Shown: piece by piece, positions 7,536 to 13,421 of the stretch
Position numbering within the stretch: the stretch's first letter is position 1
Layout of the letters: each line of letters opens with the position of its first letter
IMG/VR virus record: IMGVR_UViG_2565956608_000010
Coordinates: 1-20,320 of that record
From: a virus
Lineage: Duplodnaviria > Heunggongvirae > Uroviricota > Caudoviricetes
Strand: one strand, 5' to 3'
DNA: 20,320 nt
Made by a program: the position numbers and the translations under genes
Notes under the pieces: model-generated
Databases searched by the model: none
What the model saw: only the letters and a program-made list of their open reading frames with translations
What the model was told of the DNA's origin: nothing

Positions 7536-8333
7536 TCACCTGTCGAAAAACACGTAGCCAGTTTTCGATACGGTGATTGCGGATGATGGTTTGGATTGTG
7601 GTTGAATGGTTTCTGGCTTTTCGTCGTTCCAGCGCTGACCTTTCAGGTAGCTCGATGGTAACAACCTGTCGAATCCAAACTGCTTACCATTCCTGCATGC
7701 GATGTCTTCTGCCAGCATCGTGGCAAACTCGCTTGCCGTACCCCTGGTAGTTTTACGCCATTCCCTGAACTGTGTTCTGAATGCCGACGCTGCGTTTTTC
7801 TTCCCGGCCTTCCGCATGCCTGCACACCAGAATATTTCCTCGAATGCCTTGTCGGTTTCTTCGTGACGGTCAGGAGTTTTTTCACACTCCGTTCGGACAT
7901 GTTCGAACATAATGTTTTTAGGTTCATTGACTGGTTCAAAAGAGTGATAGGTTCTGGGGGCAGCTCCTGCCCCACCCCCTAGGGCAGCTCCTGCCCCACC
8001 CCGGGCAGCTCCTGCCCCACCCCGGGCAGCTCCTGCCCCACCTGATTCTGGTGGGATTTGTTGTGCATTATCCAGCGTCAGATAAAAAACGTTTGACTGG
8101 TTAAGCTCTCCTTTTCTTCTGCATTCCCTTTTCAAAAGACCCATCTCTTCCAGTGCCCTAATGTGACTTTTTACTGTCGATCTGCTCACCTCACACTGGT
8201 CAGCGACATGTTGATATGAAGGCCAGCATTCGCCATTATCATTGGCGTTATCGGCAAGTTTAATCAGAACCAGTTTTCTCAGTGGGTTGCCAACCTTTAT
8301 ATTCATGGCCTTAGCCATAAGATTCATGCTCAT
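7536..8333 (-). CDS. putative replication initiator / origin-binding protein (HTH N-terminal domain, Gly/Ala repeat linker), 265 aa
   Basis: N-terminal winged-helix-like segment (LVLIKLADNANDNGECWPSYQHVADQCEVSRSTVKSHIRALEEMGLLK); contains the iteron array in its coding sequence (translated as GGAGAARGGAGAARGGAGAALGGGAGAA); sits upstream of the primase-helicase in the lambda O position. Confidence 0.65.
   Translation of the reverse strand: MSMNLMAKAMNIKVGNPLRKLVLIKLADNANDNGECWPSYQHVADQCEVSRSTVKSHIRALEEMGLLKRECRRKGELNQSNVFYLTLDNAQQIPPESGGAGAARGGAGAARGGAGAALGGGAGAAPRTYHSFEPVNEPKNIMFEHVRTECEKTPDRHEETDKAFEEIFWCAGMRKAGKKNAASAFRTQFREWRKTTRGTASEFATMLAEDIACRNGKQFGFDRLLPSSYLKGQRWNDEKPETIQPQSKPSSAITVSKTGYVFFDR
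7956..8042. repeat. four tandem direct repeats of about 21 bp (GGGCAGCTCCTGCCCCACCCC), each with internal dyad GGCAG-CTC-CTGCC; putative ori iterons
   Basis: Unit starts at about 7958, 7982, 8003 and 8024 (periods 24, 21, 21), read directly; a more AT-rich stretch follows at about 7895..7950; arrangement parallels lambda ori inside gene O. Confidence 0.7.
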
Positions 8334-8473
8334 TTTGACTTCTCCGAAGTTTTGTACCTGTTAAGTATTTCTCTCAGTGGCACAGCTATTGCTGGATTAA
8401 CCCCCTGATAAAACTGGTCACGTAGCACATCTTTTCGGTGATTAACGCGTTTATTTTCCTGCGTTTTTCGCAT
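8330..8473 (-). CDS. small hypothetical protein (47 aa) between cII and the initiator
   Basis: Internal Met of the 103-aa track ORF (MRKTQENKRVNHRKDVLRDQFYQGVNPAIAVPLREILNRYKTSEKSK) with RBS GAGG before the ATG; stop overlaps the initiator ATG (ATGA); the longer track ORF overlaps cII and is rejected. Confidence 0.4.
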   Translation of the reverse strand: MRKTQENKRVNHRKDVLRDQFYQGVNPAIAVPLREILNRYKTSEKSK

Positions 8474-8495
8474 ATAATTACCTCGTTGGATGTTG

Positions 8496-8795
8496 TTAAA
8501 ATTCCATCTGGATTTGTTCAGAACGCTCGGTCTTGCACACCGGGCGTTTTTTATTGGTGAGTCCATCAAGTGCATACTTAAAAGCCCTGCTAATCGGACT
8601 GATGTCTGATGCCATTCCGAAAGCACACAAGACCGAAGCAATAAATCTCCAGTCCGTTCTGCTTATCTTCGATTCATGACAGCCAATCATCTTTGCCAGA
8701 CCGCGCTGGGTAAGCGTTGACAGGTTGATGAGTAAATCTGTTTCTGCGCGATCAACGTCGCGCTGGGATAGTTTGCTGTAACTTGTTTGTGTCAT
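8496..8795 (-). CDS. cII: CII-like transcriptional activator (99 aa)
   Basis: C-terminus TNKKRPVCKTERSEQIQMEF matches the lambda CII C-terminus (…TNKKRPAATERSEQIQMEF); position immediately downstream of cro. Confidence 0.85.
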   Translation of the reverse strand: MTQTSYSKLSQRDVDRAETDLLINLSTLTQRGLAKMIGCHESKISRTDWRFIASVLCAFGMASDISPISRAFKYALDGLTNKKRPVCKTERSEQIQMEF

Positions 8796-8880
8796 TTCTT
8801 AATATTTCCAATAGTGAATAGTTAGTTGAAAGGTATGCGTGGAAACGCATATGGCCTTAGTTGGTCAGATATATTGGGAC

Positions 8881-8926
8881 TCGCTTTGTCAGCGACGTAG
8901 GACGAATGTCCATTGTGAAAAGAGCG
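8881..8926 (-). promoter_or_regulatory. nutR-like site: boxA-like CGCTCTTTT and boxB hairpin UCGCU-GACAA-AGCGA
   Basis: Minus strand reads CGCTCTTTTC (8917..8926) just after the cro stop, then about 21 nt, then a 5-bp stem with GACAA pentaloop (8881..8895). Confidence 0.5.
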
Positions 8927-8933
8927 GTGTTAC

Positions 8934-9143
<210 letters not shown>

Positions 9144-9158
9144 TTAGTACATGCAACC

Positions 9159-9228
9159 ATTATCACCGCTAGAGGTAAAATAGTCAACACGCACGGTGTT
9201 AGATATTTATCCCTTGCGGTGATAGATT
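9159..9228. promoter_or_regulatory. Right operator OR1-OR2-OR3 with divergent promoters pR (minus strand, to cro) and pRM (plus strand, to cI)
   Basis: OR1 TATCACCGCTAGAGGTA 9161..9177; OR2 CAACACGCACGGTGTTA 9185..9201; OR3 TATCCCTTGCGGTGATA 9208..9224; pR -35 TTGACT (9187..9182) and -10 GATAAT (9164..9159) on the minus strand; pRM -35 TAGATA 9200..9205 and -10 TAGATT 9223..9228. Confidence 0.9.
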
Positions 9229-9231
9229 TAA

Positions 9232-9948
<717 letters not shown>

Positions 9949-10116
9949 TTGTGTGAAACAGGCTGCAGAAATGCAGTCTTTTTCGGTTATCGATGTCACC
10001 ACTGGTAAATCGTTTACCATAAGTCTTGATCTATTTGGTTTACCGTGTCACTCTTGGTGCACCACTTTACCAATGGTAAAACATTAACCAGCAATGACAT
10101 CGTTAACCAGGAGTTT

Positions 10117-11139
10117 ATGATGAAGAAATATGCTATATGGAACAACAAGGGAGGAACAGGGAAAACAAGCCTGTCATTTCAAGCTATTTGCAGATATGCA
10201 GAAATTCACCCGCTTGAGCGCGTGTTGGTTATTGATGTGTGCCCACAGGCAAACTTGTCAGAGCTTTTTCTTGGGGGGTTAATAGGTAATGGAAGCATAA
10301 ACTTATTGACTAGGCATGATATAAATAATAGATGTACTTTGGGTGGCTACTTCCAAATGCGCCTCCCGACGCCTTATCAAAAACCCATTGTTGATGCCCA
10401 CGATTATTTGACACACCCAAAAAAATTCAACGAACATATTCCAGCCAATATATCGTTGGTATGCGGTGACCCGCTTCTTGAGCTTCAAGCAAACGCCATC
10501 AACACTCTTGCTAATCAGCAGATTCCAGGAACAAATGCATGGGTAAGCATCATTGATTGGATTAATGATCTTATTAAAGATCTAAATGATGAGTACGATG
10601 TTTTATTTATTGACTGTAATCCTAGTTTTTCAATTTATACTCAAATAGCATTAGCTGCTGTAGAAAAGCTCATCTTGCCAGTTATGGCTGATGATTCCTC
10701 TCGTCGCGCCATTCAAAATGCTTTCTCTTTGATTTATGGATTAAAGTTGCCATCTGATATTTATGCATCCTACGCATTTGCAAACAAACTTACCGCGGTG
10801 AGCAGACCACTACCCAAAGTTCATATGATCGCAAAAAACCGTCTTACACAGTATATGGGGCCTGCATCAGCCTATGCCGCAGTTCTAAAATCAATCGATA
10901 ATGATATTCAGCAACTATTACTAAGTAACCCTGAAATTTTCGACTTCGAAAATATTGAAGAGGGAGTGGTAAATATTAAAGATTTTCAGACAACTGGTGT
11001 TGTTGCCTTTGCTAAAGGATGTCCATTTTCGATCCTACCAACAGGTAGTGTACGAGTTATGAACAGAAGGGTAAAAGTTAATGCCCCATATAAACAATCT
11101 TGCTTAGAAGCCATTGATAGGATGGTGGTTAAACTATAA
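10117..11139 (+). CDS. ParA/MinD-like P-loop ATPase (340 aa from MMKKYAIWNNKGGTGKTS) in the rexAB position; function unknown, candidate exclusion/defence gene
   Basis: Deviant Walker A KGGTGKTS near the N-terminus, ParA-type motif VLVIDVCPQANLS and later VLFIDCNPS; RBS AGGAG 4 nt upstream of ATGATG at 10117; AT-rich by eye; flanked by the cI terminus and a terminator before OL. Confidence 0.7.
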   Translation: MMKKYAIWNNKGGTGKTSLSFQAICRYAEIHPLERVLVIDVCPQANLSELFLGGLIGNGSINLLTRHDINNRCTLGGYFQMRLPTPYQKPIVDAHDYLTHPKKFNEHIPANISLVCGDPLLELQANAINTLANQQIPGTNAWVSIIDWINDLIKDLNDEYDVLFIDCNPSFSIYTQIALAAVEKLILPVMADDSSRRAIQNAFSLIYGLKLPSDIYASYAFANKLTAVSRPLPKVHMIAKNRLTQYMGPASAYAAVLKSIDNDIQQLLLSNPEIFDFENIEEGVVNIKDFQTTGVVAFAKGCPFSILPTGSVRVMNRRVKVNAPYKQSCLEAIDRMVVKL

Positions 11140-11147
11140 ATCAACCA

Positions 11148-11174
11148 ACCCGGCCCCAGTGCCGGGTTTTCTTT
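11148..11174 (+). terminator. Rho-independent terminator after the ParA-like gene
   Basis: ACCCGGC-CCCAGT-GCCGGGT stem-loop followed by TTTCTTTG. Confidence 0.6.
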
Positions 11175-11331
11175 GCCTCACGATCCCCTTCACCCAATAA
11201 CACATAACCAATTGTATTTATTTGAAAATTAATAGATACAACTCACTAAACATCGCAATTCAGATCTCTCGATCACCTCCCAAGCCACACACCCCTGCAA
11301 AAAAATAAATCTATATAAAAAACATACAGAT

Positions 11332-11394
11332 AACCATCTGCGGTGATAAATTATCTCTGGCGGTGTTGACATAAATACCACTGGCGGTGATACT
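11332..11394 (+). promoter_or_regulatory. Left operator OL3-OL2-OL1 with promoter pL
   Basis: OL3 AACCATCTGCGGTGATA 11332..11348; OL2 TATCTCTGGCGGTGTTG 11352..11368; OL1 TACCACTGGCGGTGATA 11376..11392; pL -35 TTGACA 11366..11371, 17-bp spacer, -10 GATACT 11389..11394; matches lambda OL/pL as recalled. Confidence 0.9.
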
Positions 11395-11462
11395 AAACAC
11401 ATCAGCAGGACGCACTACTCACCAGGGCGGTGAATATACAACGATTCGAATATGAATCTACG

Positions 11463-11477
11463 GCGCTGACAAAGCGC
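11463..11477 (+). promoter_or_regulatory. nutL boxB-like hairpin GCGCU-GACAA-AGCGC in the N leader
   Basis: 5-bp stem with GACAA pentaloop about 65 nt downstream of pL; same loop as the nutR hairpin; no clear boxA identified upstream. Confidence 0.5.
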
Positions 11478-11642
11478 AATAACCAAAGTGAACTTTGGGG
11501 TGTGGTGAAGGGTTCATGGACGGGAATATGTCGCACGTAAAGCGGCGAGGCCTGCAGGACTATTGCCGAATTGAAGTAGGCCGAAACAGGTCGAAATGGG
11601 TCTCCCACCTACCACACCACCAAAGTTCATCAGGAGGTCTAT

Positions 11643-12026
11643 ATGACACGCAGAACTCAGTTCAAAGGCAATTCACGTTCTCGTCGTCGTGAGCGTTTAA
11701 AGGCAAAGGCATTAGCTAACGGCGTGCTGGCCCGCGAAGAAGCAATAAGTTCAGAAGTATTACACCGCCCTACTCTAAGCAGAGCGCAGATTCAGGCTAA
11801 AGGTACTCACGAAACGCCTGAGCGCATAGAAGACGCTAAGCCAATTAAGTTCATGGCACAGGACGTGATCTGGCAACAGAAAGAATACAGACGCAATCTG
11901 GAGCGAGCGGCCATTGTGTACGCGAATGAGTTTGGACATAAGCAACCAGAAACTGGTGTATGTCTTCCAAACGTAGCCATTTACGCGGCAGGCTACCGGA
12001 AATCCAAACAACTGACGGCGAGGTGA
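11643..12026 (+). CDS. N: N-like transcription antiterminator (127 aa, arginine-rich N-terminal motif)
   Basis: First gene of the pL operon after a ~240-nt structured leader; Arg-rich motif TRRTQFKGNSRSRRRERLKAKALA; RBS AGGAGG before the ATG; not lambda N by sequence but the same position and features. Confidence 0.75.
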   Translation: MTRRTQFKGNSRSRRRERLKAKALANGVLAREEAISSEVLHRPTLSRAQIQAKGTHETPERIEDAKPIKFMAQDVIWQQKEYRRNLERAAIVYANEFGHKQPETGVCLPNVAIYAAGYRKSKQLTAR

Positions 12027-12047
12027 CGATCCCCCGCCGTCGAGGAA

Positions 12048-12587
12048 CTAAATTAGCTCATCAGCTTTACCAGCAAAGCGCATATAACACTCATGGAACC
12101 AGACGTCAGGTATAACAAATTTCTCTCTACCTGACGCGCTGTAAGTCACACCTGAGCGATGGAGAAGGCCTTTTCTCATAAGAGATAAAGCGACCGGATC
12201 GCCGTGCTTAAGTACGATTTTGTTATTTGCCATAACAGCAAATGCTAAAACCTCTTTTTCCTGAATACTCAGAGAATTGAACAGGCGCTCAGTCTCCACA
12301 ATTACTTTAGCCTCATCTCTCTTACTGAGATATTTTTTATATCTGTCTGAAGATGCCAGAAATATAAACTCCATCACCCTGTTCAGAACATAACTGATAC
12401 ACAAAAGCATTGCGTAATACATCCAGTGATCTGGAAGTATTTCTGGGTTCCTTATATCTACCCACTCTTTAATTGATGCGGGGGTGATTATTATCAAGGC
12501 AATTAAAATAATAAGCATATGAATTAACTGTTGTAGCGTAAGACCACGCAGGAAGAAACGTAATAGTTCCTGCCACCAGTTACTCAT
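12048..12587 (-). CDS. SieB-like superinfection exclusion membrane protein (179 aa)
   Basis: Convergent, tail-to-tail with N as I recall lambda sieB being; hydrophobic helix LIHMLIILIALIIITPASI; assignment by position and topology, not by recognised sequence identity. Confidence 0.45.
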   Translation of the reverse strand: MSNWWQELLRFFLRGLTLQQLIHMLIILIALIIITPASIKEWVDIRNPEILPDHWMYYAMLLCISYVLNRVMEFIFLASSDRYKKYLSKRDEAKVIVETERLFNSLSIQEKEVLAFAVMANNKIVLKHGDPVALSLMRKGLLHRSGVTYSASGREKFVIPDVWFHECYMRFAGKADELI

Positions 12588-12797
12588 CGGTGAATCTCCA
12601 TCATTCTCTCTGTAGGGGGTGAATAGAGTTTATCCGATTTCTCGCTGTAGGGGTACACGAGAACCACCGAGCCTGATGTGGTTAAAAGACAGGCACAATC
12701 TTTACTACCGCAAGCCACGCAGTGAAATGGGTGTGACTTGTGTTGGTCGCCAGAAAATGAAATTAGGCAGCAAACCACTTATTTGAGAGGAATTAAT

Positions 12798-13421
12798 ATG
12801 TCATCAATCCGCTTAACTACGAGAATGAAAGAGGAAATCGCTCGTAACGCTTTAATTAAGTCCGGGGTGTTCACTGAACTTGAAGAAGTAACAAAGTTAA
12901 AGAACCAGCTTGCACTTGACGCCAGAGTTATTGCGTTTGGCGGGAAAAAGAAAACCGAAGAAGTGGACCAGCTGGCATCAAAGTTAATGGCTGCAAGTGA
13001 GGAACTTCAAAAGCTGGGATGTTCATTTTACTCATGCGATGTCAGTTCATGTTCGATTTATCTGACTGTATCTGGAAGAAGGGTTGGCTGGCATTCATAC
13101 GGAAAAGACGGCAACGGTGAAGATATATTGCTCCCTACCCCCGACAAAGATAAATGCATGTTTGACGCAGAACACAAAATAACAAAAAGGTTTGATGAAA
13201 TCTGCGCATTGCAACAAAAACTTGAAGCCAGGAAAAAGGATATAGAATCAAACGTATGGGCTGCTTTGAACTCAGTCACAACAGTTAAGCGACTTATTGA
13301 AGTTTGGCCTGAAAGCAAAGAGTTGCTACCAAAAGAAGCAGATAAAGCAAGTGCAGCACTTCCTGCTTTACGGGTAGAAGATTTGAATAAGATGATTGGA
13401 CTTCCTTCCGAGGCCGCATAA
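12798..13421 (+). CDS. hypothetical protein (207 aa from MSSIRLTTRMKEEIA), coiled-coil-rich; occupies the ral/ea10 region of the pL operon
   Basis: Internal Met of the track ORF preceded by RBS GAGAGGA; followed by a terminator hairpin; no family recognised. Confidence 0.6.
   Translation: MSSIRLTTRMKEEIARNALIKSGVFTELEEVTKLKNQLALDARVIAFGGKKKTEEVDQLASKLMAASEELQKLGCSFYSCDVSSCSIYLTVSGRRVGWHSYGKDGNGEDILLPTPDKDKCMFDAEHKITKRFDEICALQQKLEARKKDIESNVWAALNSVTTVKRLIEVWPESKELLPKEADKASAALPALRVEDLNKMIGLPSEAA

Follow-up and report, generated by a model that had tools for sequence, protein, structure and literature searches.

A close described counterpart of the locus analysed here is the N leader of phage lambda, in which N and the Nus factors at NUTL repress the translation of N though NUTL lies ~200 nt from the Shine-Dalgarno sequence, SD (PMC5725501, citing Wilson 1997, 2002). 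The intervening leader is described as 'highly structured', with RNase III modulating the repression (PMC5725501; see also PMC8708148) and with a structure that may compact the loop from NUTL to the SD (PMC5725501), and the RNase III site of the leader (rIII) as well as the translational autoregulation of N are credited to Kameyama 1991 and Wilson 1997/2002 (summarised in PMC5725501). As regards the recognition of RNA by N, the systems to compare are P22, where the N-peptide complex contains a 15-mer RNA that equals the nutL boxB of our sequence (PMC11480772), and H-19B, whose nutR was used in N antitermination and footprinting experiments (Muteeb et al. 2012; PMC3526286). Our literature searches found no report of RNase III cleavage in a leader of the 933W/HK97/H-19B type, and nothing useful on the nut sites of 933W, HK97 and mEp234.

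The DNA considered here (hereafter the window) is a whole stretch of 20,320 nt from a virus of the Caudoviricetes (IMG/VR record IMGVR_UViG_2565956608_000010, positions 1 to 20,320). The region that precedes N in it is very probably the leader that runs from pL to N in a lambdoid prophage of lambda immunity, with an N module of the HK97/933W/H-19B type and a lambda-like, RNase III-regulated N. The coordinates of its features are given in Table 1, and all of the features noted are already known for the HK97/933W/H-19B-type sequence family.

Table 1 Features of the early control region, in window coordinates and in order of position
Feature	Position	Strand	Sequence or description	Evidence
cII	8496-8795	-		
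nutR boxB	8881-8895	-	UCGCU-GACAA-AGCGA (DNA TCGCT-GACAA-AGCGA)	MFE and centroid
nutR spacer hairpin	8900-8911	-	GGAC-AUUC-GUCC	MFE and centroid; identical to H-19B nutR spacer oligo
nutR boxA	8918-8926	-	CGCUCUUUU	1 mismatch vs CGCTCTTTA; annotated nutR boxA in mEp234
cro	8934-9134	-		
cI	9235-9948	+		
pL promoter	11366-11394	+	TTGACA-17-GATACT, overlapping lambda-type OL operators	promoter scan, 10/12 matches
Equivalent of the mEp234-annotated 'nutL boxA'	11411-11419	+	CGCACTACT	poor: 4 mismatches vs CGCTCTTTA
Small 5' leader hairpin	11419-11433	+	CACCA-GGGCG-GUGAA region	MFE and centroid
nutL spacer hairpin	11443-11458	+	GAUUC-GAAUAU-GAAUC	MFE and centroid
nutL boxB	11463-11477	+	GCGCU-GACAA-AGCGC (DNA GCGCT-GACAA-AGCGC), P22-type pentaloop	MFE and centroid; identity to P22 nutL boxB
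Local hairpin	11483-11498	+	CCAAAG-UGAA-CUUUGG, competing for the CUUUGG core of the 5' arm	fold prediction
5' arm of the long-range stem	11488-11506	+	GUGAACUUUGGGGUGUGGU; includes boxC-like GGUGUGG	
Hairpin interior	11507-11610	+	length 104 nt; folds into 3 or 4 sub-hairpins	
3' arm of the long-range stem	11611-11630	+	ACCACACC-A-CCAAAGUUCAU, A11619 bulged	
N Shine-Dalgarno and start	11632-11645	+	AGGAGG 11632-11637, 5-nt spacer, AUG 11643	
N antiterminator gene	11643-12026	+	127 aa	Pfam PF25694 N_peptide, 2.1e-15

Early control region and nut sites

The immunity region of the window is lambdoid, with the repressor system of lambda itself and with OL and OR operators of the lambda type. The transcript from pL starts at ~11401 on the + strand and runs into N; its first 15 nt are identical in the pL transcript of lambda, and the mEp234 record has a homologous pL with OL1-3 and the +1 annotated. 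The 701-bp segment from pL to N is 99.7% identical to that of PhiR5_2 and 98% identical to those of HK97, mEp234, and HK106, and from the transcript start on, ~99.4% identity is seen in 933W and in dozens of Stx1/Stx2 phages. The immunity itself is lambda's, as in mEp234 and HK106, and not that of H-19B or 933W. The small hairpin at the 5' end of the leader was present in every 933W/HK97/Salmonella-type leader folded, and lambda has one at the conserved position, as ACCAC-CAUGA-AGGUG. An Rfam scan of 8300-12300 (E-value mode) gave no relevant family, only a chance match to rliD (E = 0.63). A coding reading of the open reading frames at 11495-11692 (+) and 11402-11608 (-) was rejected, as related leaders have interiors that resemble one another in neither sequence nor length.

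A first-pass annotation of the letters alone had proposed that both nut sites carry a hairpin with a 5-bp stem and a GACAA loop. Both hairpins were recovered where it had placed them, in the MFE and centroid folds of the leader as well as of the cro-to-cII side, and a search of both strands of the 20.3-kb window gave no other hairpin with a perfect 5-bp stem and a GACAA loop (mean expectation 0.043, P(≥2) = 0.001 in 2000 shuffles). The nutL boxB follows the start of the pL transcript after 62 nt, and the nutR boxB follows the stop codon of cro after 39 nt on the - strand, so that position and transcribed strand are as expected of lambdoid nut sites. Their identification as boxBs is backed by annotation at homologous positions, namely boxA and boxB of both nutL and nutR in the mEp234 immunity-region record (EF120460) and nutL in the 933W record (AF125520), and by a match to H-19B: the antisense oligonucleotides for the spacer, boxB, and downstream part of H-19B nutR (Muteeb et al. 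2012) have 0 mismatches to the window, and the boxA oligonucleotide has one mismatch to the nutR boxA of the window, which is the nearer of the two to the consensus. N-dependent antitermination was shown for this matching nutR in H-19B (PMC3526286). The nutR of mEp234 is base-for-base identical to that of the window, and the nutL region is identical in 933W and in the H-19B-like ST2-8624. Both nut sites of the window have a hairpin in the spacer, as do the NUT sites of H-19B, 933W, HK97, and mEp234; the one in nutL was found in all 933W/H-19B-type leaders folded, mEp234 having a loop variant in which the stem is kept.

The boxA consensus used as nut-site criterion was CGCUCUUUA, located upstream of boxB. 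While nutR has such an element, nothing within three mismatches of CGCTCTTTA was found in 11401-11480, and compared with lambda the nutL of the window combines a P22-type boxB with the lack of a consensus boxA. The 'nutL boxA' of EF120460 aligns with lambda sequence other than lambda's boxA. Since nutL has no recognisable boxA, Nus factors may be tethered to NUTL in another way here than in lambda, whose model of autoregulation requires such tethering. Neely and Friedman reportedly found in 2000 that the N of H-19B works without boxA, NusB, or S10, and its nut spacers are said to contain dyad symmetries.

A boxB of this type is defined by a short G+C-rich stem and a GNRA-like pentaloop specific for its cognate N, GACAA in the case of P22. 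The GACAA loop had been noted to differ from the loops of lambda, which are indeed GAAGA (nutL) and GAAAA (nutR), and to fit a non-lambda N. This fit is borne out by the comparison with P22: the 15-mer of the nutL boxB is identical to that of P22 nutL (GCGCUGACAAAGCGC; NC_002371), and the N of the window, which is 100% identical to 933W N, 98.4% identical to HK97 N, and only marginally similar to lambda N (E = 0.012), belongs to the lineage of P22 gp24. The BLAST match to gp24 is restricted to 30 aa of the C-terminus (67% identity, E = 3e-10), where both proteins have LPxVAxYAAGxRKSKQxTAR, while the MAFFT alignment gives ~40% identity overall and also aligns the arginine-rich motifs (F-GN..RR.ER; FKGNSRSRRRERLKAKA vs. 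FAGNAKTRRHERRRKLA). Unlike the window, P22 has a boxA of consensus type in nutL (GCUCUUUAA) and lacks a spacer hairpin of the window kind there, and the stem of its nutR boxB is different. A PDB sequence search with N returned nothing relevant, the P22 N peptide being too short for such a search.

As an independent test, 113 related leaders were taken from IMG/VR, and across them the subtype of the arginine-rich motif tracks the type of boxB: on one and the same leader scaffold, N proteins with the motif FKGNSRSRRRE go with the GACAA boxB and those with FNGSA(A/S)GRRRE with a GGCU-GAAA-AGCC boxB. BoxB and arginine-rich motif thus change together and behave as cognate pairs should. The sister N group with FNGSA(A/S)GRRRE (IMG/VR leaders L025, L030, L032, L060, L062, and others) has a boxB loop of 4 nt, GAAA, and the SPN9CC-type leaders (N motif FKGTSRARRRE) have GCUC-CGUCAAC-GAGC in place of the GACAA boxB. 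The boxB variants across N subtypes look like a natural specificity series for the recognition of boxB by N.

Long-range stem of the N leader

The two arms downstream of nutL form one helix of ~19 pairs with one bulge (A11619), which encloses 104 nt and sits between the nutL boxB and the SD of N, its base 2 nt before the latter. An inverted-repeat search detected 11489-11498/11620-11629 at 100% and 11494-11506/11611-11623 at 85%. The stem is present in both the MFE and the centroid structure of the 260-nt leader, which folds with z = -3.3 (one of 200 shuffles folded as well), and the isolated duplex has -30 kcal/mol. With 19 pairs and a bulged A it is comparable to the folded lambda stem and stands at the short end of typical substrates of E. 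coli RNase III, for which dsRNA of about two helical turns would be suitable. The first-pass annotation had described an inverted repeat around ~105 nt just before the N ribosome-binding site and had named its absence from the MFE structure as one part of a refutation; the repeat is real and part of that structure, the size and place of the enclosed segment hold, and the 3' arm is exact at 11612-11627, but AACTTTGGGGTGTGGTG of the 5' arm occupies 11491-11507 and not 11490-11506. An intrinsic terminator at the stem was rejected, there being no U-run after it and no terminator-like match.

The SD is predicted to be unpaired with a mean probability of 0.53 when the leader is intact, of 0.61 when it resembles a cut product, and of 0.93 when the stem is left out. 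As the predicted shift in accessibility between the intact and the cut-like leader is modest, uncoupling from NUTL is the more plausible effect of a cut than the relief of direct occlusion.

The core of the 5' arm is also claimed by a local hairpin of -4.8 kcal/mol, compared with -30 for the long duplex. According to the predictions, 11493-11498 stays in this local hairpin in every truncated transcript that ends before the 3' arm is complete (at 11630), and the hairpin may be a co-transcriptional folding intermediate. Equivalent hairpins are located upstream in lambda (CAAAGC/GCUUUG, with the same CAAAG/CUUUG as in the window) and in P22 (CCAAAC/GUUUGG), and phi80 is without one. A three-way covariation of the upstream CCAAAG with both arms was considered as a sign that the alternative hairpin is conserved and was rejected, since the innermost lambda pair has no counterpart in the window and phi80 has no upstream copy.

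The stem had been called reminiscent of the structure in the lambda N leader, and the likeness is stronger than this. At the equivalent positions, TTTGGGGTGTG and CACACCACCAAAG are identical in lambda, with identical cores of 11-13 nt: the lambda leader has CUUUGGGGUGUG on the 5' side and CACACCACCAAAG on the 3' side as well as the same bulged A, CTTTGGGGTGTG being the part of the 5' arm and CACACCACCAAAG the part of the 3' arm in common. The lambda stem stands at the same place, between the nutL boxB and the SD of N. Identical core strings and the same bulged fold before the SD indicate that the two stems are homologous. They differ in the basal pairs, which are G-C in lambda and A-U in the window (compensatory changes), in the distance from the stem base to the SD (~10 nt vs. 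2 nt), and in the interior of the hairpin, which is unrelated.

Eleven other N leaders were folded for comparison. The same stem, with its base beside the SD, was obtained for lambda, phi80, P22, ST2-8624, BIS08P22, g341c, and SPN9CC; the fold of the short VT2-Sakai leader had no long stem, and BP-4795 seemed to be without it solely because its annotated N start lies within the hairpin interior. This annotated N (ORF19, 150 aa; L007, 864-1313) thus begins inside an interior whose sequence is that of ST2-8624, and its start is probably placed too far upstream.

To score covariation, 25 distinct arm pairs were aligned in a fixed register, with those of lambda, phi80, and ArgO145 included; the IMG/VR leaders have 22 distinct arm pairs. 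Paired cells amounted to 94.9%, compared with 35-43% when the register was slid by 1 to 3 columns, and the covariation score was reached by none of 500 column shuffles. Double-sided (compensatory) changes were present at 13 of the 21 pairs, the lower-stem 3' strand being fixed by the search pattern, so that it is mostly the upper stem, together with the rows of lambda, phi80, and ArgO145, that provides informative variation. Since 106 of the 113 leaders contain the 5'-arm anchor GTGARCTTTGG at one place only, the choice of the arms is not circular. The occurrence of G-U pairs in the + (transcribed) sense points to pairing of RNA rather than DNA. This covariation gives quantitative support to the view that lambdoid phages of E. 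coli and Salmonella have conserved the stalk of the N leader as an RNA structure. That the hairpins and the inverted repeat are functionless chance features is barely conceivable in view of the probability of ~0.001 for two GACAA hairpins, the leader fold (z = -3.3), the clear covariation controls, and the identity with nut sites used in experiments.

Hairpin interior and neighbouring genes

The interior has 91-96% identity to the leaders of three phages with other N genes, phi80, ArgO145, and Louie, which makes the hairpin an exchangeable module. In the IMG/VR leaders, this stem with its one-base bulge closes at least 13 interiors unrelated to one another, giving hairpins of 81-239 nt, and such a diversity within one stem would be expected of a duplex that is itself functional. 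Relatives of the interior have one compensatory pair only (66-101), a variation too small to judge the sub-helices.

The arms could also be understood as patches of DNA homology, i.e., recombination linkers for the exchange of leader and N modules, the pairing of the RNA being incidental. The mosaic joints coincide with the arms, the interior together with the upper arms is common to phi80, ArgO145, and Louie despite their different N genes, and the arms flank 13 or more different interiors. Linkers, however, need identity and not complementarity, while the arms of the upper stem vary together (13 pairs with double changes) and only the transcribed sense tolerates G-U pairs, so we regard this explanation as very improbable. 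Somewhat less remote, though still decidedly unlikely, is that the stalk is a universal 'cassette holder' from which RNase III would free structured interiors of ~60-220 nt as cargo RNAs with a regulatory or decoy role very early in infection. The positive evidence for it is limited to the horizontal retention of interiors, as in the 91-96% identity among phages with unrelated N genes; some interiors also have D-arm/T-arm strings of tRNA type. Its alternative is that the interiors are neutral spacers. The tRNA-like strings (GUAGCUCAGUUGGAAAGAGC, GGUUCGAAUCCAGCC) occur in the interiors of L062, L113, L089, and L006, with acceptor-like GGAUG/CAUCC flanks; ARAGORN predicted no tRNA in L062, L113, L089, L025, L055, L006, or the window.

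The place of rexAB in lambda and of hicAB in mEp234, between cI and pL, is taken in the window by a gene for a ParA/MinD-like ATPase (10120-11139, +; Pfam AAA_31 1.1e-16, CbiA), which is followed by a bidirectional terminator (11147-11168). The arrangement of cI, the ParA-like gene, and pL is absent from the complete genomes of E. coli, of which the best covers 63% and matches in the flanks alone; the sole close phage match is Salmonella phage S.Inf 5-2 (98.5%), and distant ParA-like proteins are encoded by Pseudomonas phi297 and a Klebsiella phage. The gene may be a moron or an exclusion gene expressed from the prophage.

Downstream of N lies a gene for the superinfection-exclusion protein SieB (12048-12587, -; Pfam SieB 3.6e-20). 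Beyond the intact 933W-type N and downstream of sieB, a remnant of a lambda/21-type N C-terminus (YYRKPRSEMGVTCVGRQKMKLGSKPLI; 12703-12786, +) is contained in the open reading frame 12619-12786. It has 59% identity to the 27 C-terminal residues of lambda N (E = 7e-8) and resembles a scar left by recombination when an older N module was replaced. The protein encoded at 12738-13421 (+) has a full-length Nmad5 ('nucleotide modification associated domain 5') match (1.5e-68). PADLOC gave no match for the ParA-like, SieB, or Nmad5 proteins.

Proposed control of N

In the first step of the mechanism that we propose, the transcripts from pL (+) and from pR (-, after cro) carry NUT sites whose GACAA boxB is the one bound by the arginine-rich N-terminus of the cognate N, as sequence identity to phages that have been studied shows. 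N, NusA, and RNA polymerase would then constitute an elongation complex resistant to termination. In the second step, the boxC-like 5' arm that follows nutL pairs with the 3' arm 104 nt further on, and the role of this structure would be the one known from lambda. The local hairpin at 11483-11498 probably holds the 5' arm first, according to the predicted folds, and would be replaced by the long duplex once the 3' arm has emerged at ~11630. As long as the leader is intact, N and Nus factors at NUTL, tethered to RNA polymerase, would repress the translation of N as in lambda, and a compact structured leader would keep NUTL near the ribosome-binding site. By homology with the lambda stem, cleavage by RNase III would separate NUTL from the ribosome-binding site and remove the stem adjacent to the SD, so that the synthesis of N would rise and the level of N could become coupled to the RNase III activity of the host.

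Such a function of the stem, in which RNase III cleavage relieves the repression of N translation, is likely by homology with lambda. The other reading of the stem is purely structural: uncut by RNase III, it would position NUTL beside the ribosome-binding site of N or protect the mRNA, and structure alone would set the translation of N. The stem base is only 2 nt from the SD, a compaction of the NUTL-to-SD loop by the leader is considered for lambda in PMC5725501, and the helix is bulged and just ~19 bp long. Two observations make this reading unlikely: the arm cores are identical to those of the lambda stem, where regulation of N mRNA by RNase III is documented, and a long duplex kept around freely swapped interiors is what would be predicted for the site of a double-strand-specific nuclease.

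For regulation by RNase III, a functional analogue may be seen in the rrn leader of E. coli, which has the same order of a Nus-factor loading site (boxA in rrn) followed by a G/U-rich boxC 5' strand (UCUGUGUGGG in rrn, GGGGUGUGGUG in the window). In both, the partner of the boxC-like strand is a 3' strand far away, and the two make up a stalk for RNase III, which in rrn is the leader-trailer helix and for the window is a prediction. The structure of the rrn helix matters more than the boxC sequence (PMC10250234), a rule that is paralleled by the covariation of the window stem. The rrn helix encloses the 16S rRNA and has a trailer, whereas that of the window encloses a 104-nt spacer and has no trailer; the outcome is the maturation of rRNA in the former and would be the control of mRNA translation in the latter.

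The early reading of the region from sequence alone has proved trustworthy and allows a confident annotation of pL, nutL, the rIII-type stem, N, and nutR. For the window itself the importance of this is small, since its leader is nearly identical to those of HK97, mEp234, HK106, 933W, and many Stx phages. The N of Stx phages is driven by the same leader, and by extrapolation the control of N by RNase III could thus affect the induction dynamics of Stx prophages.
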